Assembly: GCA_964016885.1 (NCBI GenBank)
Contig: OZ024741.1
Location: 56,358,001-56,422,000, forward strand
Reading direction: 5' to 3'
Length of the DNA stretch: 64,000 nucleotides
DNA from: Eledone cirrhosa
Lineage: Eukaryota
The stretch's first letter is position 1, and each line of letters starts with the position of its first letter. The position numbers and the translations under genes are program-made. The notes beneath the pieces are model-generated. The model did no database searches. It was not told where the DNA came from and was given only the letters and a program-made list of their open reading frames with translations. Shown here one piece after another: positions 161 through 59,790 of this stretch.

Positions 161-596
161 TGGATATATGAATAATCATAAAAACGGGGAATTTATGTTT
201 TGATAAATTTATGGTTTGCATAAGAGAAGTCCTATAGTTTATGTAGAATACTGACACCTGGAACTGATTACAACAGATGAGAATGATATTTTGAAATTAT
301 ATCTCGAGGATCATCATCACTGCTGTTTTACATTCATTTTTTAATGCTTGTATGGGTTGGGCAACAATATAATTACATAAATGTTAAGCTTATATGTACA
401 AATGACATACATGATTAAAAATATGGGTAACTTTGTAGAAATACCTATTAGGGTTAGAAACCAGGACCTTGTGGCTGCAATAAGAAGTTCACTTTCCAAG
501 TGATCTCATTGTAGCAACATGACAGATAAGAAATACATTGTGTGTGTGTTTGTAAATTGTAAAGAGTTACAGGTTGATACATATATATAATTATTA

Positions 597-785
597 AGGT
601 GGATTGGCAGTATCGGTAGAGGGTTGGGCGCCATGCTTTGAAGCATGGAGTTACCTCCCTTTATGATCTGAGTTCAAATCCCGCCGTGGTTAATTTTGCC
701 TTTCATCCTTACGAGGTCGATAAAATAAAGTACCAGTAATGCACTGGGATAATTGCTGGCCTTGTGCCAAAAGTAGAAACAATTA
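597..785 (+). mobile_element. SINE family A copy
   Basis: Same head, core and tail as 21474-21653. Confidence 0.85.
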
Positions 786-855
786 AATTACTGTTCATAT
801 TTTTATTATCGTTATGTATAAGAAAAACATCATCATTATTATTGTCAGGATATTA

Positions 856-1115
856 CGGTGGATTGGCAGAATTGTTACCCCGTCCTACCCATGCTAGCGT
901 GGAAGATGGATGTTAAACAATGATGATGATGATGTTAGACAAAATACCTTGTGGTATTTGTTCTGGCTCTTTACATTCTGAGTTCAAATCGCACTAAGAT
1001 CAACTTTGTCTTTCATCTTTCTGGGGTCGATAAAATAACTTTCCAGTCAAGTACTGGGGTTGATGTTATCAACTTTCCTTTCCCTCAACATTGCTGGCCT
1101 TGTGCCAAAATTAGA

Positions 1116-1146
<31 letters not shown>

Positions 1147-1150
1147 GTTG
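856..1150 (+). mobile_element. SINE family A copy interrupted by a short RTE-type (GAT)n 3' tail at ~880-935
   Basis: Head ggtggattggcagaattgtta resumes as gttagacaaaatacc after the insert; ends in a long (TAT)n tract. Confidence 0.75.
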
Positions 1151-1645
1151 TTGGTGAAGCCACGCTTCTTATCGCCTCCAGTCTTTTTCAACGTTTTACC
1201 TCTTTTTCAACCGTTCTAAACCTTTTATTCAAGTTTTAAATTTGATAAAAGTTTAGAAGAAGTGACCCACCTAATACAGGGGTTCACTAGTAAATAATAC
1301 GGCACCCCTTTACGGGGTGTCGTATTCGTATTTGTGTAAAAATATTTTTTGAAAAATTTCAACATGGATAACACAAAAAAGAGAGAGAGCGCTGTCAGAC
1401 AACAGAGAGAGGGAGACTTTATCAGCATGTCAACAAGACAGCGTTCCAGCGGAGGTAAATATAAACGAAAATATTACAAAGGAAAAAAAGATTGTTACAG
1501 ATTTAAAATTACCAAATATTTCTAACACAAACAACAGCAACAACATCACCAACAACATCACCAACAACAACACCAACAACAACACCAACAACAACACCAA
1601 TAATAACACCAACAATAACACCAACAATAACACCAACAACATCAC

Positions 1646-4600
1646 TTAATAATAATGAAATTATTGTGTACAGTGCTCAGGTGCACTACAACTCATCAAA
1701 GGTGCATGTATAGTACATAGAATAATGTACAAATGTCAGGAAAATAAACAGTGTATGAGTCATGATATAATAACAATAACAATAATGAAATATTGTGCAC
1801 AGTGCCCAGGTGCACCACAACCCATCAAAAAAGTGCATGTACAGTACATAGGGCAATGCACAAACATCAGTAAAATGAACAGTGCACGAGTCATGATACA
1901 CACGTGTGCATGTGTATGGAAGGGGCACATCAGGTGTAGTTTTGGCGTATTTCGGGAAGCATGAGTGTCTTAAAGGATGCAGTGTCTCGGCAGCTAACAA
2001 TTGACGCAGGCAGTTTGTTCCATGCTTCAGCAACTCTGAGCGTGAAAAAATGTCTGCGAAAGTCATGGGAGCTGTGCTGTTTTCTTATCTTGTAGGCATG
2101 TCCACGTGTGTTAGACACATGGAGATCAAAGAGGCGCTCAAGGTTGCAGTTGGCGAGATGGTTAAAAACTTTGTGGGTATTCACCAAGTCCATTGCCAGA
2201 CGTCGGAGCTTCAATGAATCCATGCCCAGGGAAGCAAGGCGTTCAGAGTATGGTAGGTGTCTGATGGAGGGTATGCGCTTGGTTGCACGTCTCTGAACAG
2301 TTTCCAGGAGGTCAATGTTCCGAGCAAGATAGGGGTTCCAGACTGATGATGTGAATTCCAAGTGTGGTCGCACCATAGCTGTATACAGTTTTAAATAGAT
2401 GGCTGGAGAGTGGCTAACAAAGGTCTTGCTGAGTGATGCCAAGACACCCTCGGCCTTCTTGACAATCTTAGAGACATGCTTTGTCCAACGCAAATCGTTG
2501 CTGACAGTAATGCCCAGGTCACGTTCACAAGAGGACTTTTTGATGTCAGTGTTGTGGAGGGAGTATGTGGACGCTGGATTTTTCCTTCCAAAATGCATGG
2601 TGGTACACTTGTCCACAGCCAGCTTCAGTTGCCAGTCTGTGATCCATTGCTGCATTGTGTCCAGGTTTGATTGTAGGAAAGAGTTGTAAATTTCAGGATC
2701 AGTCCTTTTGATTTCAAAGTACAGCTTGATGTCATCTGCATATTTTAGTACCGTGGCATTCTGTAAGTTGGCATCTATGTCATTAATATATGCCACAAAC
2801 AAAAGAGGACCAAGAACAGATCCCTGTGGTACACCAGATGACATCTCATATGGTGAAGAATGCTGTCTTAGAACCGTGACTACTTCCTTTCGGCTGAGAA
2901 TGAAGGATTTCAGCCAGTCGAAAAGATCATCCCTCACACCCATTGCAGAGAGTTTTGCCATAAGTCTTTTGTGTGGCACAGAATTAAAAGCCTTAGCAAA
3001 GTCAAGGTAAACAACATCCACCCATGAGCCGCTGTCAGTGATCCGGGTGATGTCCTCAAGGAACTCGATAAGCTGATCACAGCAGCTGGAGTTAGGGATA
3101 AATCCAAACTGTGAGGGCCGGATGAGGCTGTGAGAGCTCCAGAAGTTCCAAAGTGTTTCTCTGACACAGGATTCCATCAGTTTGGCCATACAGCTAGTAA
3201 GACTGACTGGACGATAGTTGACAGGTGACATGCGGTTGCCCTTTTTGAACAGGGGAATGACACTGGCAGTTTTCCACTGCTCCGGAGTAGCACCATTGCT
3301 GAGACAGTATTGAAAGAAAAAAGAAAGCTGGCGCAAAAGGAAATCCCCGCCACGTTTGAGAAGCAGGTATGTCACACCATCAAGACCAGGGGAGGCATAG
3401 TTGCGCTTATTCTTAAGGTGACGTCGCAACATTGCAGGTGTAAATTCCATAGTTGTTATGGAATTTGATGTTGGAGATGGTACATTCTGGTTTTCAACAG
3501 TAAAAATACTTGCATAGCACTCAGCAATGAGTTCTGCGCATTCCTTGGGATCGTCAGTGATCTGGCTTGTGTGGGGATTGCGAAGAGGACCAACTGGAGA
3601 GTGAGGTCTCTGCTTTGAATGAACATATTTCCAGAACACCTTACTGTCAGGATTGGTTGCGATGCACTGTTCAAATTCAAGCACTGCCTTCTTTGTCACT
3701 TGCTTGAGATGGTTAGAAGATTTATTCCGCTTTTTTCTGTTGGCATCTGATCTATGCAGTTTATATTCCCGTTCAGCGTTCCGACGTTCTTTCCTGGCAA
3801 GTCGGACCGCTGAAGTTTCCCAGATTGCACTTTTGGGGTGGTTATTTTTCCGCTTCCGTGGCACTGATGCTGCACACGCTATCCATATTGAGTCCAGGAT
3901 GCTCTGGAGTATAGAGTTCACATCTCCAGAGTTATACATCTCATGCCAGTTTGGGCGCTGTAGCTCAGTGCAGTACAAGTTCCAATCCGCCCTCTTCCAA
4001 TCAAAGCAAGCAGATTGGAGATGGCTCTGGTTTTTGTTGCTGCCCTCAAGTGCCAGATTGGCAATGATCATAGCATGATCAGAGTCGCCTAGAGGTTCCT
4101 CAGTAGTACAACTGATAACCACTTCAGGAGTAGTGGTGAAGATCAGGTCCAAAGTGTTGTCACCTCTTGTTGGAGAGGTGAGTACTTGTGACCAGTTTGA
4201 GTCCAGCACTAGTTCAAGGAAATCGTTTGCACCTTGTGGCCAACGAAAGGTTTCCCAATCGATCTCAGGATGATTGAAGTCACCTGCAATAAACACATAA
4301 GTGGCTGTTTTCTTGGCAGCAACTCTGAGGATATCGCAAAGCTGTGTGTCCTGATGGTAGTTTGGGGGGCGATAAACAACACCAAGCAGAAGTGTTGACA
4401 TGGTCATACGTATGTCACAGAAAAAAACTTCTTCCTGTGATTCGTTCAAATCAACGCAAGGAATTACCGAAAAGTTTGAACGAACGTAGACCATCACACC
4501 ACCACCACGGCGGTTAATGCGGTCCTTGCGGAAAAGGTTGTACCCAGTAATGGTGAAAACCCCATCACAGAGTAAGGAATGTGCCCATGTTTCCGTGACT

Positions 4601-5150
4601 GTGATGAAGTCAGGGTCGATGCTTCTGACGTAGGATTCGAACAGATGTATCTTGTTGCATAAACTGCGAGCATTTAAGGACAACAATTTGTACCCTGCTC
4701 GCAGTTTATGATGGTGTGTAGAGGGTGGCAGGTTGTTCTGGTTTAGTTTCCCAGAGTTGTAGCAGTTTTTACATTGCCAGTTATTGTGGGTAGATCACAC
4801 TCAGACCAGCTGGTATCTCTCTTCCACGTTTCACCAGCCTTGACAAACCTCCAGATCTGCCCATCATCACGCAGACTGAAACTTTCATCTTGTGCTGAGT
4901 TCCGATTTAAGGAAGCTGCAGCACGTAGTTTTGGACGTACATGGGGTGGTAGGCCTGGGCGTGTTCGGAAGGTAATCCGATTTTCACGCCCAGCTTTAGC
5001 AGAGGCCAGATGATATGAGGTTGCCTCTGCGGGGTCCGAGAAAGACAGCCTGATGAGTCTGGGTTTTGGACCAGGTCGACCAAGGCGGAGGGCACCCTTT
5101 GGGGGAACACAGCCTAGGTCTTTGGCTGAGCTGGCAGCAAATGCCTGAAG
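1646..5150 (-). mobile_element. CR1-type LINE, 5'-truncated within ORF1, inserted antisense into Tx1 copy 1 ORF1
   Basis: ORF1 C-terminal remnant (LRLGRPGPKPRLIRLSF), intact ORF2, tandemly duplicated 3'UTR, (ATT)n tail; candidate TSD ATCAC at 1641-1645 and 5151-5155. Confidence 0.9.
1930..4686 (-). CDS. CR1 ORF2, APE endonuclease plus reverse transcriptase, uninterrupted 918 aa, no AUG start
   Basis: LNARSL, VTETW, GDFNHP, SDH (APE); YLDFAKAF, SGVPQGSVLGP, YADD (RT); CR1-type C-terminus ERDLG, RPHLE, QRRATK, TRGH, FFTLRV..WNKLP. Confidence 0.93.
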   Translation of the reverse strand: MLSLNARSLCNKIHLFESYVRSIDPDFITVTETWAHSLLCDGVFTITGYNLFRKDRINRRGGGVMVYVRSNFSVIPCVDLNESQEEVFFCDIRMTMSTLLLGVVYRPPNYHQDTQLCDILRVAAKKTATYVFIAGDFNHPEIDWETFRWPQGANDFLELVLDSNWSQVLTSPTRGDNTLDLIFTTTPEVVISCTTEEPLGDSDHAMIIANLALEGSNKNQSHLQSACFDWKRADWNLYCTELQRPNWHEMYNSGDVNSILQSILDSIWIACAASVPRKRKNNHPKSAIWETSAVRLARKERRNAEREYKLHRSDANRKKRNKSSNHLKQVTKKAVLEFEQCIATNPDSKVFWKYVHSKQRPHSPVGPLRNPHTSQITDDPKECAELIAECYASIFTVENQNVPSPTSNSITTMEFTPAMLRRHLKNKRNYASPGLDGVTYLLLKRGGDFLLRQLSFFFQYCLSNGATPEQWKTASVIPLFKKGNRMSPVNYRPVSLTSCMAKLMESCVRETLWNFWSSHSLIRPSQFGFIPNSSCCDQLIEFLEDITRITDSGSWVDVVYLDFAKAFNSVPHKRLMAKLSAMGVRDDLFDWLKSFILSRKEVVTVLRQHSSPYEMSSGVPQGSVLGPLLFVAYINDIDANLQNATVLKYADDIKLYFEIKRTDPEIYNSFLQSNLDTMQQWITDWQLKLAVDKCTTMHFGRKNPASTYSLHNTDIKKSSCERDLGITVSNDLRWTKHVSKIVKKAEGVLASLSKTFVSHSPAIYLKLYTAMVRPHLEFTSSVWNPYLARNIDLLETVQRRATKRIPSIRHLPYSERLASLGMDSLKLRRLAMDLVNTHKVFNHLANCNLERLFDLHVSNTRGHAYKIRKQHSSHDFRRHFFTLRVAEAWNKLPASIVSCRDTASFKTLMLPEIRQNYT

Positions 5151-6985
5151 ATCACCAAAAATAACAGCGGTAAAGTCGAGAACGACAATAACAAAAATAA
5201 CAGCGGTAAAGTCGAGAACGACAATAACAAAAATAACAGCGGTAAGGTCGAGAACGACAATAACAATGACAATAACAACAGCCACAACAACAATAATAGT
5301 AGGAACAGTATCAACAAAAACAACAATAATAACAACAGCCACAATAACAGTAACAGCAGCAACAGTATCAACGAAAACAACACCAACAATTGTACCAGCG
5401 GAAACAACAACAATGACACCGATACCTGTAATAGCGACCTCAACACCACCAGTAAGACCAGTAGTGGCAGCAATAGTGGTGCTGCTGAAAAAGGGACCAC
5501 TTCTTTTGCAGGTGTCGCCCGAAATATCGAGACAGTGTTAGTCACAGAGGAGGAGATGGCAGTCGCAAGGGCCATGGTGACAAGAAGCGCAAATAGAGTT
5601 CTCCTGAAACCTCCACCTGATTTTTTTCAAGGAACAGCAGCTACGGACGGTGACTTACCGCACCGTAAGCAAAATCTCACATCGAGTGGAGAGAGCCACG
5701 GAGGCTCAAATCCAAAAGGCCTTGGGGTGTGTCTGGGCACGCAAAACCCACATCACCCGAGGCAGAAAGTACGCCACAGTAGACGTACTTTTCGCCACCC
5801 CCCAGGAAGCAAAGTCTCACTCTTTGGAAACCTAAAGAGTGAGGAGTTAGTCTTGGTGCCCTCCTACTGCGGGAAGAAAATTGTGAGGGTCAAAGTGACC
5901 CAGGTCCCACCCGACGTGCCCATACCTTGGCTGGCCGCGTCTGTCCTTGCTGGAATTGAGAACAGGGCGACCATGCTGCAAGTAGAAAAAATAGGGAGAG
6001 AGAACTGGTCAGGTATAGGCATGCAAATGCTTATACAAACTGACAAGGAATGTATCGAGGCTATCCCCGATATCATAGACTTCGAGGAAGGACTCCAACT
6101 CCCTATAAGTGTAGAAGGAAGACGGCCAAAATGTTATCTCTGTGGGTCGAAAGGTCACCTCAGGGCCTTTTGCCCGCAGAAGACACCGAAGATGGCCCCT
6201 CTCCTTCCAATACCTGGTCCGCTGCTACCAAGAGCAGGACAGGCAACAAACGAAGAAGCCCCTTCCACGGTGAGTAGGAGGGCAACTTCCGTAGCACCCG
6301 TACCAAGGCCATGGATAACTAAAGCAGCATCATCAGTAACGGCAACACCAATAGCTACATTTGAAATAGCAACAAAATTGCCGAAGAGGGCTCCACTACC
6401 ACCACCAACAGCCGTGGAGCACATACCCCTCCCAGACGCCACAGAATCCGACATGGAGTTTGAGGCGGGAGTGACGTGGCAAACAGTCTGCCACAAAAAA
6501 CAAAAAACCCCTTAGATTCACCCTCCAAAAGCGAAGGCATACAAAGAGGGGTAAAGGCAACAAGGAAACTTGCAGCAACACCACCACAAACACCAACAAC
6601 GCAAACACAAGACACACACACAAAACGGCAACAAAATCACCCCTCCCCCAAAAAAGTACACAGCCATAAACATAGCAAAAAAAGAACTCATAAAATATAT
6701 AAAGCAGCACACAGACATCACGGAAAAAAACTACTACACCCCACCAACACCAAGAACTCTCCCGACAAACATAAGTATCATCGAAATCTCAATAGAACAA
6801 TACAAACCTTTAAAACAAAAATTCCCCAACGCAGTTGGAGACTTCAGAGGGACGGTTACCAAGAGAATATACACTGACATCCTCTTGGAAACACCCATGA
6901 CCAGCGAAAGGGACGGTTCTACTGTCCCTTCACCACACGAACAAGGTAAGTGACCCTTTCTCATTTGCCCCGTTTCTCATCCAAC

Positions 6986-9900
6986 ATGGCTGTACTCAGA
7001 ATAGGCAGTATAAATGCACGTGGCCTGGGGTCATCTTGGAAGCAGGGTCACCTGCTCAATGACCTCAGGTCACTAAACATAGATGTGGTGGCCATCAGTG
7101 AAACCAGAATCTCCGAGGCATGGGCCTTCGCACCGATCTTCGGCGCCTACGATGTATACGTATCTCCCAGCCGTCCAGGATCGGGGGGAGGGGTTGCCGT
7201 CCTTTTTCGGAGAGGCTTGGATCTCGCGATACGGGCCATCTTCCTGGACCCAGAAGGTAAGTCGGTGGTGCTGGACGTGACCGGCAGCGAAGGCAATGCT
7301 TTCAGGCTAGTAGCCGTCTACGCCCAGCTGGGGCAGGACGGCCAGATTTCTTCAGACGTCGGGTCATCCAGATCGTATCTAGATGGGGTATTCTGCAGGG
7401 AACTAGATAAGGCTAGTATAAGTTGTCCACAATTTAAAATAGTCGACTACACAGACCACAAATTTGTGATCTGTGAGATCGACATAGACAGACTTCATAG
7501 ACAAGGGCCTGGTTACTGGAAGCTGAACACGTCTTTCCCGGCGCGCAAGGCCTACAGAGACCGGATTAGCGTATTAGTTAAGCGGGCGTTGACGGAAGCG
7601 GTCGTCAACAACAGGTGGTGGTTTGCCCTTAAAAGGGCAATTAAAGTAGGGTCGATTAGGTTTAGTAAAGGAGTAGTGATAGAGGAAAATAGAGTAGAGG
7701 GAGAGCTAGTCAGAAAGCTAGAAGAGGCGTTTAGGACAGGCATCGCAACCGACGTGCTTGCGGCGAGATTGGCACTCGACCAATTCTTCAACGCAAAACA
7801 CGAAGGCTGCGTTGTCAGAGCTAGAGCGCGTGCTCTGAAACACGAGGGGACAAAAGCTGTCCAATGGGCCCGGGTGGCAGAGGTGCGATGTGGCAACAAA
7901 GCCACAATTCGGTCTTTGTCTGACCAAAACGGGTGCATGATGCTCGAACTCGAGCGGATGTCTGAAGCTTTTCAGCAGCACTTTGCTGAACTGTTCGGGA
8001 GCAGCGGCGGCCCGGATCGGGGCATGGACTTCAGTGCATACCTCGACGGACTGCCTCGGCTCTCGACGACCGCAGCACAGTGCTGCGAAAAGCCAATAAC
8101 AACCGGTGAAATACGCGAAGTGATGGCTAACTGCACAAGGGGTAAATCGCCAGGTTTAGATGGTCTGCCCTACGAGCTTTATGCATTTATGCCAGACTTG
8201 TTCGGTGACCTCTTGGCAGACGTCTACTGCAACTGGCAGCAGAACGGGAGCATTCCCAGTTTTATGAGCCGGGGAGTAGAGGCGCTGCTGAGAAAAGACC
8301 CGAACAAGGGGGATGTTATCGATAATTTCAGGCCCATAACCCTGCTAAACGCAGAGTTTAAGATTTTGGCCAAGGTGTTAACAACGAGGTTAGCGCTTGT
8401 CGTCAAGGGTCTGGTGGGAGAGGCGCAGACATGCGCCATTCCGGACAGATCCATACACGACAACCTCCACCTCATGCGATACATCATAGAGAGGGTGGTT
8501 AAGGAACCTGGCAAGGGTGGGGCCCTGATCAACTTGGATCAATCCAAAGCATTCGATAGGGTCGACCATCGGTACCTGGCGGCGGTCCTCGAGGCTGCCG
8601 GTTTCGGGCCCGTTTTCAGGCGTTGGATCGCAGCAATGTACAGCGACATCTGCTCAGTTGTGAGGGTGAACGGTCACCTGTCGCAGCCATTCAGCATCAT
8701 GCGCTCAGTCCGCCAGGGTTGTCCCCTTTCGTCCCTCTTGTACGTATTGGCTCTCGAGCCGTTACTGCACAAACTGGGGGCGATGAGGGGCGTCCCACGC
8801 GAACTAGGATGCGGGAAATCCGAGTCGGCTTACGCTGACGACGTCACCGTGGTGGTGTCGAGCATCAGACACGTCCAGATGCTCGGCACCGCTCTCAAGG
8901 AATACGAAGCGGTGACAGGAGCAAAGATAAACCAGGAAAAGTCGGTGGGCTTGCAGCTCGGCACCTGGAGAGGCAAGTCCATGCCGTCTGACAGCGTCGT
9001 GGGGCGTTGGATGGATCGGTTAAATTGCTCGGGGTCTGGTTCGGACCGGACCTCCAGATGGAGAAAAACTGGAACAAGGTGACGAACAGGGTGGCCTCCC
9101 TCACCCAGAAATGGGCCGAGAGTAGGCTGTCCCTGAAAGGCCGGGCGGAAGTGGCGAATGCATGCATCACATCCGTCATCTGCTACCGCCTCACCGTCCC
9201 TTGCTCCGGCCCAACTCTCACCAAAATGGAGCGCCTCCTCTTCCACTTTTTGTGGAAGGGACGCGCTCCCATGGTCAGACGATCCATCTGCTGTCAACAC
9301 CCGTTGCGTGGAGGACTGGGCATGCCATGGCTGATGATGCGCAAACATGCGCTGAGGCTGTGACATCTCTGGTGCTTCCTTGATGGTGAACGGGTGTGGT
9401 CGGCGTTCGCCAGGCATAGCTCGTCTCCTTGACGGAGCTGCAGTCCTGGGTCAGAAAAAGACCGAGGGATAGCGCTTGGAAACTGGAATGTCTCCAGGCG
9501 CTCACTGCCCTCTCCCAGTTGGGCACCAGTATCGGTGGAACATCCACCTCGGCGTTCTATAGAGGACTAGTGGAGGGGAAGAGCGACGACATTCTCGGAG
9601 AGATCCTGGGCGTCGAAGAAGATCAGCTGTTTGCTCTCTTCCGGAGAACTCTCAGCCTGGGGCCTATGATTAACTTCCAAAAATCCCTGGCCTGGCAGTG
9701 ATACCGGGGAGCGCTGCTGGTTCGAGATAAGCTCTACAGGCACGGAAGTGCCGTCAGCCGAGCCTGTCCGAGATGCGCGCATAGCGACGAAACCGTTGTG
9801 CACGCACTCGTTCAGTGCCCGAGCATTGCTGACTTGTGGAGCTATGTCGAACAGTTGCTGTCACGTGTGGGACTGATCCGGTTGTCGACTGAGTCCATTG

Positions 9901-10181
9901 TGCAGATGGTCTCGCCGTCTTCCTTTGAGGAGGAAGGGCAGGTGGTTTTCATCTGCCTGGTGGCCATGGCGAAAGAGATTGTGTGGTGGACAAGGTTAAA
10001 AGGATTAAAGACAAACACTTTCCTCTTCGGCGAATACCTAATTAACTTTTTCAAGTTTCACTTGAAGAGGAAAATCAGGGTGGAGAGGCAAGTGCTGCTT
10101 TCTAGCAAGTTTGTTGAAAGGTGGGTGAATGTAGCGAGAATGGTCCGAGTGAACGGGACCACTCTGAATATACGTCTGTAG
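6986..10181 (+). pseudogene. Tx1 copy 1 ORF2 (endonuclease-reverse transcriptase), disrupted
   Basis: Colinear with the intact ORF2 at 12816-16235 but split across ORFs 6950-9082, 9007-9363, 9429-9701 and 9798-10181. Confidence 0.9.
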
Positions 10182-10701
10182 TTTGAGAGATGGAAAAATT
10201 GAGAGAGGGCGCTTGCCCTGGTAGTCAGGGTGGCCGTGGTCTTTTGTGTGGTTTTCGCCACGAGTAACCCTCGGAGGTTTCCTCCCTATTGGGGAATTTT
10301 TCATTGTTTCAATTTTCATTTTATTGTTTATATATATATATGTTTTATGTCTTTTTTCTTTTCTTATATAAATAATAAAAATATTTACATGCACAAAACT
10401 CACATCATACCGTCCTGTTCCGTCTGTGATGTTTTTCTTGATGTCAGCCTTGTGGCCAATAAAGAAATCATTATTATTATTATTATTGAATGCCATGGTT
10501 GACGGAGGCTCGGCTCTGTAAGGTATAGTAATTTTTAACCGTTAAAACAATTGTAAATTGTTTAAAACTTGAACCAAATTGTTGATAAAGACACCCTCCT
10601 CCTCGTGAGAGGGGTCTTTCTGTCCGTTATTTGGCCCTTCGGGGCTAAATAACCAGTTATTGGGGTTTTGTACCCAATATTCATTTTAAACAAAAAACAA
10701 C

Positions 10702-21200: not shown

Positions 21201-21333
21201 ACGACTAAAGAAAGATGTTCTCAGGCAGCTGCCAGCCAAACGGAGGCAAGCCGTTCTATTAAACCCTAGTGCTATTAAAACTGATGCATCCATGAAGAAA
21301 ATCTCCTCTTTGGTACATAAATCAACATCAAGT
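21201..21333 (+). CDS. SMARCAL1: SMARCAL1 internal exon
   Basis: ttacag|...|gtaagt; (R)RLKKDVLRQLPAKRRQAVLLNPSAIKTDASMKKISSLVHKSTSS, SNF2 RRLKxDVLxQLPxK motif; phase 2/0. Confidence 0.93.
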
Positions 21334-21344
21334 GTAAGTAACAT

Positions 21345-22200
21345 TGCATTATGATACATCTTAGTACTTCTTGATGATACATCTCAGTCCTACATTATGA
21401 TACACCTCAGTCCTACATTATGATACACCTCAGTCCTACATTATGATACATCTCTGTCCTACATTATGATACAGTGGATTGGTAGTATCGGTAGAGGGTC
21501 GGACGCCATGCTTTCCAGCATAGTTACGTCCCTTTACGATCTGAGTTCAAGTCCCGCCGAGGTTGACTTTGCCTTTCATCCTTACGGGGTCGATAAAATA
21601 AAGTACCAGTAAGGCACTGGGTAAATACTGGCCTTGTGCCTAAAGTAGAAACAATTATGATACACCTCAGTCCTACATTATGATACATCTAGTTCTACAT
21701 TATGATACATCTAGTTCTACATTATGATACATCTCAGTCATACATTGTGATACATCTCAGTCATACATTATGATATATACATTATGATACATCTCAGTCA
21801 TACGTTATGATATATCTCTGTCCTATATTATGATACATCTCAGTCATACATTATGATATATACATTATGATACATCTCAGTCATACGTTATGATATATCT
21901 CTGTCCTATATTATGATACATCTCAGTCATACATTATGATATATACATTATGATACATCTCAGTCATACATTGATATATCTCTGTCCTATATTATGATAC
22001 ATCTCAGTCATACATTATGATATATACATTATGATACATCTCAGTCATACATTGATATATCTCTGTCCTATATTATGATACATTATAGTATTTCTTGATA
22101 ATACACCTCAGTCATATATTATGATACATCTCAATACTACTTTATGATACACCTCAGTGTTGCTTTATGATACATCTCAGTATTGTTTTATGATACATCA
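21345..22200 (+). repeat. Minisatellite, ~23-bp unit cattatgatacatctcagtccta with higher-order variants, interrupted by a SINE
   Basis: Dozens of attatgatacatctcagt units starting just after the exon ending at 21333. Confidence 0.92.
21474..21653 (+). mobile_element. SINE family A (tRNA-derived head, conserved central domain, ATT tail)
   Basis: A box tggtagtatcgg, B box gagttcaagtccc, core ttgcctttcatccttacggggtcgataaaataaagtaccag; flanked by attatgataca. Confidence 0.88.
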
Positions 22201-22790
22201 CAGTAATGTTCAAGACCTTCAACTTGATGCCTCTGTAGTCTTTTCTACCTAGTGCATCTTCTTTGACTTTGTAATAATTGATGTTGCTGCTGCTATGCCA
22301 GTTATTGGATATGATACCATCCTATATTACTCAACTTACTATCTATGTGACAAGTGTTGGCCCACAATACTAAATATTTTCAGCATCTCTGATGGTCCAG
22401 CTGTCTTTGCAATCATCATATCTTTAATTGTCTTACTTATCACACTACTGCTAACTTGGATGGCCAGTCACTCTCTTGGATCTACTTGGACCCACCTTCT
22501 CCCATGCTTTTTCCTATTTAACAGTTTCTCATATTAGTACTTCTACACTTCCTTCTTTTCAACATCAGTGAAGGTAAGTGTGCTTCTGTCAATTTGAATG
22601 TACTTCTCTCTAATGGCAGCTTAATTTTCTCCTGTACATTGCCTTGCAATCTGGAACACCTTGCGCCTTTCATCCACACAATTTACATGTGCAAACATCT
22701 TATTTTTTGTTTCTTTCAACATGAAGTGCATCTGGAACCTAGCTTCTCTTACTTCTTAGTATAACTTGCTACTTCCACCATTCTTCTAGT
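22200..22790 (-). mobile_element. Old RTE LINE fragment
   Basis: Degenerate similarity to 32050-32580 (tgatggtccagctgtctt; ccttgcaatctggaacacc). Confidence 0.55.
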
Positions 22791-25871: not shown

Positions 25872-27030
25872 TTAATAATAATAATAATGAAATTATTGTG
25901 TAAAGTGCTCAGGTGCACTACAACTCGTCAAAGGTGCATGTATAGTACATAGAATAATATACAAATGTCAGAGAAGTGAATAGTGTATGAGTCATGATAT
26001 ACATGTGTGTATGTGTATGGAGGGGGAACATTAGGTGTAGTGTTGGCGAATCTCGGGAAGCATGGAGGTTTTAAAGGATGCAGTATCTCGACAGCTAACA
26101 ACTGATGCAGGTAGTTTGTTCCATGCTTCAGCAACTCTGAGCGTGAAAAAATGTTTCCGAAAGTCATGGGAACTGTGTTGTTTTCTGACTTTGTGGGCAT
26201 GCCAACATGTGTTTGACACATGGAAATAAAAATGGTACTCAGGGTTGTTGTTGGCAAGATGGTTAACAATTTTGTGGGTGTTTACCAAGTCAGTTGCCAG
26301 GCATCGGAGCTTCAATGTATCCATGACCAGGGAAGCAAGGCGTTCAGAGTATGGTAGATGCCTAATGGAGGGTATTCGCTTGGTTGCACGTCTCAGAACA
26401 GTTTCCAGGTGGTCAATGTTCTGAGCAAGATAGGGGTTCCAGACTGGTGATGCAAATTCTAAGTGTGGCCGTACCATAGCCATGTACAGCCTTAAATAGA
26501 TAGCTGGAGAGTGGCTGACAAAGGTCTTGCTGAGTGATGCTAAGACAATTTTAGAGACATGCTTCGTCCAACGCAAATCGCTGCTGACCGTAATGCCCAG
26601 GTCACGTTCACAAGAAGACTTCTTGATATTAGTGCTGTGGAGGGAGTATGTGGACGCTGGGTTTTTACTCCCAAAATGCATGGTGGTGCACTTGTCCACA
26701 GCTAGCTTGAGTTGCCAGTCTGAGATCCATTGTTGCATTGTGTCCAGGTCACACTGCAAGCAAGATCTATAGTGTTCAGGATCTGTCCTTTTTATCTCGA
26801 GGTACAACTTGATGTCATCTGCGTACTTTAGTACCGTGGCATTCTTTAAGTTGGCATCTATGTCATTAATATATGCCACAAACAAAAGGGGGCCAAGAAC
26901 AGATCTCTGTGGTACACCAGATGACATCTCATATGGTGAGGAATGCTGTCCTAGAACCTTGACTACCTCTCTTTGACTGAGAATGAAGGACTTCAACCAG
27001 TTAAAAAGATCATCCCTCACACTCATTGCA
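25872..27030 (-). mobile_element. CR1-type LINE, 5'-truncated copy of the 1646-5150 family (RT C-terminal half plus 3'UTR)
   Basis: ORF 26031-27026 closely matches the C-terminus of the 918-aa ORF2; same 3'UTR and (ATT)n tail. Confidence 0.92.
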
Positions 27031-59689: not shown

Positions 59690-59790
59690 ATTTGTACATG
59701 ATTCTATGTACTATACATGCACCTTTGATGAGTTGTAGTGCACCTGAGCACTGTACACAATAATTTCATTATTATTATTATTATTATTAT
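59690..59790 (+). mobile_element. CR1 3'-end fragment inside the Gypsy element
   Basis: Reverse complement of 1646-1735, with (ATT)n tail. Confidence 0.88.

Follow-up and report, generated by a model that had tools for sequence, protein, structure and literature searches.

The 3.5-kb LINE copy located on the minus strand of the window (the 64,000-nucleotide stretch of Eledone cirrhosa DNA analysed here), from position 1646 to about 5153, ends in two tandem 3' UTRs, and this double end defines a young LINE subfamily of roughly 1,900 copies. On the step leading to the founder of this subfamily, the inner UTR gained a burst of seven substitutions, all of them A>G on the strand of the element's RNA. 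With a probability of about 0.65, we attribute the burst to ADAR, which would have edited a LINE transcript that was then retrotransposed to give rise to the founder.

The features of this copy all lie on the minus strand. At its 3' end, a terminal (ATT)n tail (1646..1656), of a kind that is nearly pure in 145 copies with a double end (hereafter doubles), is preceded by the outer 3' UTR (1657..1768), a 112-nt 3' end of the type found in an older subfamily, E, which carries the T state at the sites discussed below and a later G>A change at 1746. The inner tail (1769..1786) has two sense A>G changes that read as C at 1774 and 1780 on the plus strand and form AAC units at 1772-1774 and 1778-1780, and the inner 3' UTR (1787..1929) was traced to subfamily C by subfamily and stage comparison. 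ORF2 (1930..4794) is an open frame of 954 aa from stop to stop, ending in a TGA at 1930-1932, that encodes an AP endonuclease and a reverse transcriptase (RT; domain matches PF03372, PF14529 and PF00078). An upstream frame (4743..5153), for which no Pfam match was obtained, is probably the 3' part of ORF1 and is cut by the 5' truncation of the copy at about 5153. Two related sequences occur in the window: a single-UTR copy of the sister subfamily B (25873..27030, minus strand), which serves as outgroup and matches the double copy at about 86%, and a 5'-truncated, outer-type 3' end of 88 nt (59690..59777, plus strand).

The absence of an LTR, the short tandem (ATT)n tail at the 3' end and the scattered 5' ends of the copies, indicative of variable truncation, are all traits of non-LTR elements. 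The closest named relatives of the ORF2 RT are bird and turtle RT proteins (32-39% identity), which we take to be CR1, and the CR1 label is plausible for this LINE as one given by nearest relatives and not by a reference-clade tree. The sequence hosting the insertion (1380-1645 and 5155-10300) is the ACA-rich 5' region of another endonuclease/RT LINE, and ATCAC is found at both ends of the inserted copy, which may correspond to a target duplication or to microhomology. At 21300-22250, a SINE copy interrupts a minisatellite whose units are 23 nt long.

The original prediction was built on the two UTRs of the window copy, the inner of which was said to show an excess of T>C on the plus strand with no C>T, mostly outside CpG. 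Pairwise alignment of 1648-1768 with 1778-1899 (120 columns) bears this out with 12 T>C, one of them in the tail, and no C>T; the other differences in the same columns are three A>G, two G>A, one G>T and two indels (a deletion of 1 nt, an insertion of 2 nt). A substitution at 1903 was removed from the list of changes, a 2-nt deletion fitting better. CpG decay is ruled out, as a single one of the 12 new C's (1887) is in CpG context and the C state is derived. The C state is older at 1865 and 1885, where it is present in the single-UTR progenitor, the change at 1899 arose within subfamily C, and the changes at 1836 and 1926 are invisible to the outer-inner comparison. An assembly or consensus artefact, which had been considered beforehand, is ruled out as well: all 40 scored genomic matches to the outer UTR are 100% identical, all 40 to the inner UTR are 98-100% identical, and both UTRs and their join are covered by public contigs of two runs (X24 and X19), which yield the same change table and are uninformative on editing. 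Contigs of a relative's run (X23) leave 1770-1847 uncovered and carry no weight either way.

Double-UTR copies recur. The 17-nt junction of the double end occurs 1,914 times genome-wide (control, 1), and 30 loci fetched from outer-UTR matches all continue into the inner type. Single-UTR copies were sampled from subfamilies B (the 26 kb type), C and E. Subfamily C (848 exact motif matches) has the indel and other diagnostics of the inner UTR together with T at the sites in question, and subfamily E (185 matches) has a UTR with 1-7 differences from an early outer UTR in the majority of the 30 loci taken, a few of which are C-type or truncated, and an ORF2 that is 80-88% like that of the window copy. 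A tree built from the ORF2 of 68 copies places the doubles in a single group within C and leaves B outside. Because the doubles nest in C on this tree and their outer UTR matches E, the double element is, on these comparisons, a chimera made of a C body and C inner UTR joined to an E-type outer end. The outer UTR is thus a foreign 3' end and not the terminal duplicate that had been proposed, and since the C alleles define a large subfamily, the window copy is not itself the edited event. The double subfamily is the youngest of those sampled, end branches being near 0-0.006 in the youngest doubles, about 0.01-0.02 in early doubles and about 0.01-0.03 in C and B.

Polarity was set by the same relatives. 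B, C and E carry the T state at the changed sites, as do the 26 kb and 59.7 kb copies of the window where they overlap, and the doubles nest inside C; the plus-strand C state is derived and the changes are A>G on the element's RNA strand, both in agreement with the original prediction. The reverse polarity (G>A, APOBEC-like) is ruled out by these outgroups, the changes being A>G once C and E are used and sense-strand G>A clusters not being found. The TGA stop had been counted as part of the cluster and drops out of it, as TGA is present in subfamily C and in 22 of the 30 E loci (three have TAA and five were unread), so that TAA, as found in the 26 kb type, probably represents the derived stop.

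The burst itself is seen when 12 late-C copies are compared with the 26 earliest doubles. In the UTR, 7 of 145 columns differ (1806, 1816, 1836, 1842, 1854, 1859 and 1887) and 7/7 are sense A>G; in ORF2, 2 of 1,068 columns differ, both of them polymorphic in late C, which leaves no fixed change, and an ORF2-only tree (84 of the 159 available rows) does not separate the two groups. The UTR differs from ORF2 with p=9e-6 (Fisher) and 7/7 at a share of 0.25 has p=6e-5. Comparison with the true progenitor strengthens the bias and does not weaken it. Wider comparisons agree in kind: between B and the doubles, the 151 ORF2 differences (1,503 columns) have a balanced spectrum, with 32 A>G, 29 T>C, 28 G>A and 28 C>T, and the UTR has 14 A>G and no G>A, and between C and the doubles sense A>G makes up 11 of 13 UTR differences versus 13 of 43 in ORF2. 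The explanation that had been set against the prediction at the outset, that the C alleles mark a common subfamily with a balanced spectrum, stood as regards the large subfamily and failed as regards the balance. Six of the ORF2 A>G differences between C and the doubles (window positions 2054, 2135, 2147, 2321, 3299 and 3332) are at second codon positions; they would be changes of recoding type that became fixed in the lineage. Later stages of the doubles brought one C>A and one inserted base, followed by 3/3 A>G (1798, 1822 and 1926) as well as the AAC units of the inner tail. As UTR alleles were used to define the stage groups, these later steps are descriptive and are not tests.

No unedited form was found among 171 classified inner UTRs, 100 of which had been selected by inner alleles, nor in junction-picked loci or in 90 loci picked for T at 1806, and among 70 early-type loci, two are singles that are fully edited and have no outer end within 10 kb. 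The simplest account suggested by these copies is one event by which an already edited cDNA came to adjoin an E-type end. At L196 and L221, the fully edited UTR is the sole 3' end with no outer end over the same distance, possibly as a result of inner-tail priming; if they arose in this way, the edited end can still work at times.

Other loci illustrate how these ends are reshuffled. A second, independent double-UTR lineage, with a C-type outer end on a B-like element, was found at L122, L123 and L303 (G000:C1). This lineage accounts for 3 of the 88 loci sampled. Its inner UTR lacks an A>G cluster and its break is near the same AT-rich palindrome; doubling therefore happens without editing, and the inner UTR is not always the A>G one. 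Mosaic inner UTRs, reflecting conversion or template switching among outer, inner and C-type sequences, occur at L464 (G000:C27), L186 and L262, and their mosaic look speaks against true intermediates. Three candidate edited singles (L160, L177 and L198) are actually doubles split by later insertions. The inner tail seems to be a preferred target of other LINEs and SINEs, which are inserted there at these three loci and at L173, L193 and L270. At L282 and L297 (about 300-6200), LINEs of about 6 kb lie within the inner (AAT)n tail of two doubles, and these inserts are related, at 76% and 96% identity, to window elements at 12.6-16.5 kb and 7.0-10.3 kb.

A cluster of the same kind was detected outside the doubles. 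L199 is a single-UTR copy, placed among C on the ORF2-only tree and known from the assembly alone (contigs of runs X19-X21 and X24 do not reach its distinctive stretches or its flank), in which 10 of 13 rare differences within 1787-2200 are A>G, one of the 10 sites having been demanded by the search pattern, and none is T>C; eight of the ten follow U, and A>G accounts for 0 of 12 differences in 2001-2769. It has five sites in common with the doubles, is without six others and does not have the late-C base at 1866. Because six of the doubles' sites are absent, L199 is not a converted double and would represent an independent A>G cluster, suggesting that the process recurs. In early-stage inner tails, 30 AAC units were counted versus 7 A>G units, although each unit contains twice as many A as T, and in terminal tails 2 versus 8, tail units being partly inherited and not independent events. 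Among outer UTRs (152 copies), singleton A>G number 9 versus 4 T>C (rate ratio 3.0, p=0.03); 6 of 12 outer A>G sites are identical to inner alleles, therefore conversion may contribute, and at L464 conversion has occurred in the direction opposite to inner-to-outer.

In an unbiased sample of 86 C copies, at least three rare A>G were present in 6 copies and at least three T>C in none. The A>G excess in the UTR of these copies is not significant (ratio 1.3-1.8, p 0.10-0.34), and stands at 1.7-2.0 in 1933-2200 (p 0.05-0.14) and at 0.5-0.7 in 2201-2500. A 2.3-fold excess in C UTRs was discarded, three copies having been chosen by edited allele. A matched test at one palindromic site of terminal UTRs gave 39 versus 27 (p=0.09), mostly in old copies, and no clustering (further T>C in 5/30 versus 11/27 copies), and site recurrence between subfamilies was not consistently above chance. 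With an excess that is weak in the 86 C copies and a matched test without clustering, A>G clusters are rare events and no general feature of insertions.

As noted in the original prediction, a 5' U is favoured at the changed sites (of the adenosines preceded by U, 8 of 14 were changed, compared with 3 of the 23 remaining ones; p=0.008). Depletion of G 5' of the edited base is given as a hallmark shared by metazoan ADARs (PMC5625713) and is absent here, in small numbers: G precedes 2 of the 11 changed sites and 6 of the 37 adenosines available, and 2 of these 6 changed. In L199, a 5' G precedes 1 of the 10 A>G sites. The GA sites changed are 1806 and 1822, the latter in late doubles, L199 and L300.

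In silico folding predicts one long imperfect hairpin for the late-C UTR (z -2.8). The mean fold z of the 112-nt UTR in 6-10 copies per group is -2.7 for late C, -1.0 for other C, -0.45 for E, -0.7 for B and -1.0 for outer UTRs, a contrast that is a post hoc observation and a prediction only. Such a hairpin would offer ADAR a local substrate immediately ahead of the burst and would account for the sparing of most of the outer end. Changed adenosines are not more often predicted to be paired than unchanged ones (p 0.4-0.9), no long inverted repeat was found inside 1646-5154 (longest, 15 nt), and a small GUGC/GCAC stem-loop near the 3' end has site 1806 within its loop. The ADARs that had been assumed for a coleoid cephalopod are encoded by this octopod genome, its ADAR2 having 95% identity to that of Octopus vulgaris. 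At L405 (G000:C6:13644405-13646174), the ADAR2 deaminase domain is contained in only two long exons, and three further deaminase loci occur on C1 and C25. Repeats of coleoids are reported to undergo RNA editing (PMC9068888), and human L1 RNA is reported to be unedited, ADAR1 restricting L1 without editing (PMC5224506). Purity, strand, clustering and fold taken together make ADAR the best reading.

The preference for 5' U is compatible with ADAR and with a pol eta-like WA process alike, WA being a known A/T hotspot tied to pol eta (PMC6423074). The changes could thus have originated at the DNA level during integration, through strand-biased errors of a pol eta-type host polymerase or of the element's RT at TA near the 3' junction, with chimera formation and spread as in the ADAR reading. 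Such errors would share the strand and the 5' T context, and the clusters lie in the 3'-most 350 nt. We hold this origin to be unlikely, though more credible than the others below: the purity (7/7, 3/3 and 10/13) is above that usual for pol eta, the GA sites 1806 and 1822 were changed, 1822 in late doubles, L199 and L300, and the burst coincides with the best-folding UTR. It is more doubtful still that no special mutagen was involved and that an inner UTR shielded by the outer end drifted while selection on the RNA (loss of UA, changed fold, less internal priming) picked A>G. The stepwise continuation of the changes, the constraint on the core UTR in single-UTR subfamilies and a folding energy that becomes more negative along the series (about -35 to -46 kcal/mol) would suit such drift, yet serial selection had no time to act on a step that shows seven changes and none fixed in ORF2, none of the 171 classified inner UTRs (100 chosen by inner alleles) is unedited, L199 shows the same pattern as a one-off copy, and the fold z-score weakens after the burst. 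Finally, import of the C alleles from a more divergent subfamily outside the sample, whether by gene conversion or by recombination, the bias being due to chance on an older branch, is very improbable even in a family that is already chimeric and in which conversion exists (mosaics at L464, L186 and L262), given that all non-A>G diagnostics of the inner UTR are C-type, that the C-state UTR behind a pure tail has 7 matches genome-wide, all of them C-type singles or doubles, that two fully edited singles occur among 70 early-type loci and that import would not yield 7/7 A>G.

Under the ADAR reading, the C-type UTR would form a long imperfect hairpin, which would be at its strongest in the immediate progenitor, ADAR would deaminate this hairpin in a germ-line transcript, and reverse transcription would write the seven A-to-G edits of the inner UTR into DNA. 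The edited cDNA would end up upstream of an unedited E-type 3' end, either because it was inserted into the UTR of an E copy, because its tail received an E fragment or through a template switch. Reverse transcription would now begin at the outer end, and the inner UTR, carried along without constraint, would retain further edits. A larger proposal is made tentatively, as we rate it well below even odds: ADAR editing of the LINE 3' hairpin may have been repeatedly written into the octopus germ line, and a hyper-edited copy whose own 3' end had failed may have been rescued by the unedited, poorly folding 3' end of an older subfamily to become the youngest active subfamily, which would make it a genomic record of ADAR restriction and escape.

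This restriction and escape idea rests on the stringent 3' recognition described for related LINEs such as zebrafish ZfL2, which recognises its own 3' stem-loop (PMC4176376). The octopod LINE resembles ZfL2 in its conserved 3' UTR and short tandem tail, and in the small GUGC/GCAC stem-loop at its end. It differs from it by two tandem 3' ends that come from different subfamilies. Chimeric retrotranscripts or 3' transductions of the U6-L1 type reportedly resemble it in that a complete 3' end is fused to a truncated one from a different LINE RNA; unlike these, the octopod chimera is autonomous and became the youngest sampled subfamily.

APOBEC deaminase scars are known in genomic LTR retrotransposons of vertebrates (PMC4866542), with which the present case has in common clustered, strand-biased deaminase changes kept in genomic copies. 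In that study, the changes are G>A from cDNA editing in vertebrate LTR elements and invertebrates serve as the negative control (PMC4866542), whereas in the octopod the changes are A>G of the RNA strand, the element is non-LTR and the edited form has multiplied. ADAR hyper-editing of repeat RNA in coleoids, as described in PMC9068888 and PMC5625713, also consists of A>G clusters in repeats, with very high editing in octopus, but corresponds to RNA-versus-genome mismatches, while the changes of the octopod LINE are genomic and without 5' G depletion. APOBEC scars in genomic LTR elements and ADAR editing of repeats at the RNA level are thus known, and a genomic, amplified A>G case in a LINE is new as far as searched, no report of one having been found in a full-text literature search that covered few subscription papers, mostly titles and abstract openings, and no supplements. 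In Drosophila sigma virus, ADAR is said to hypermutate an RNA virus with edits that are heritable in the replicating RNA; inheritance of the LINE, by contrast, is via retrotransposition into the host germ line.

Edits made in RNA are not normally passed on to offspring. If the changes described here are the work of ADAR, they represent a dated entry of edits into a germ-line genome via retrotransposition, followed by an amplification of about 1,900-fold, in the group of animals that edits most. The suggested role of cephalopod ADAR against transposons, termed unexplored in PMC9068888, becomes testable with a defined substrate, progenitor and controls. The finding also suggests a screen of young LINE and SINE copies for sense-strand A>G clusters, which would be the ADAR counterpart of the APOBEC screens.
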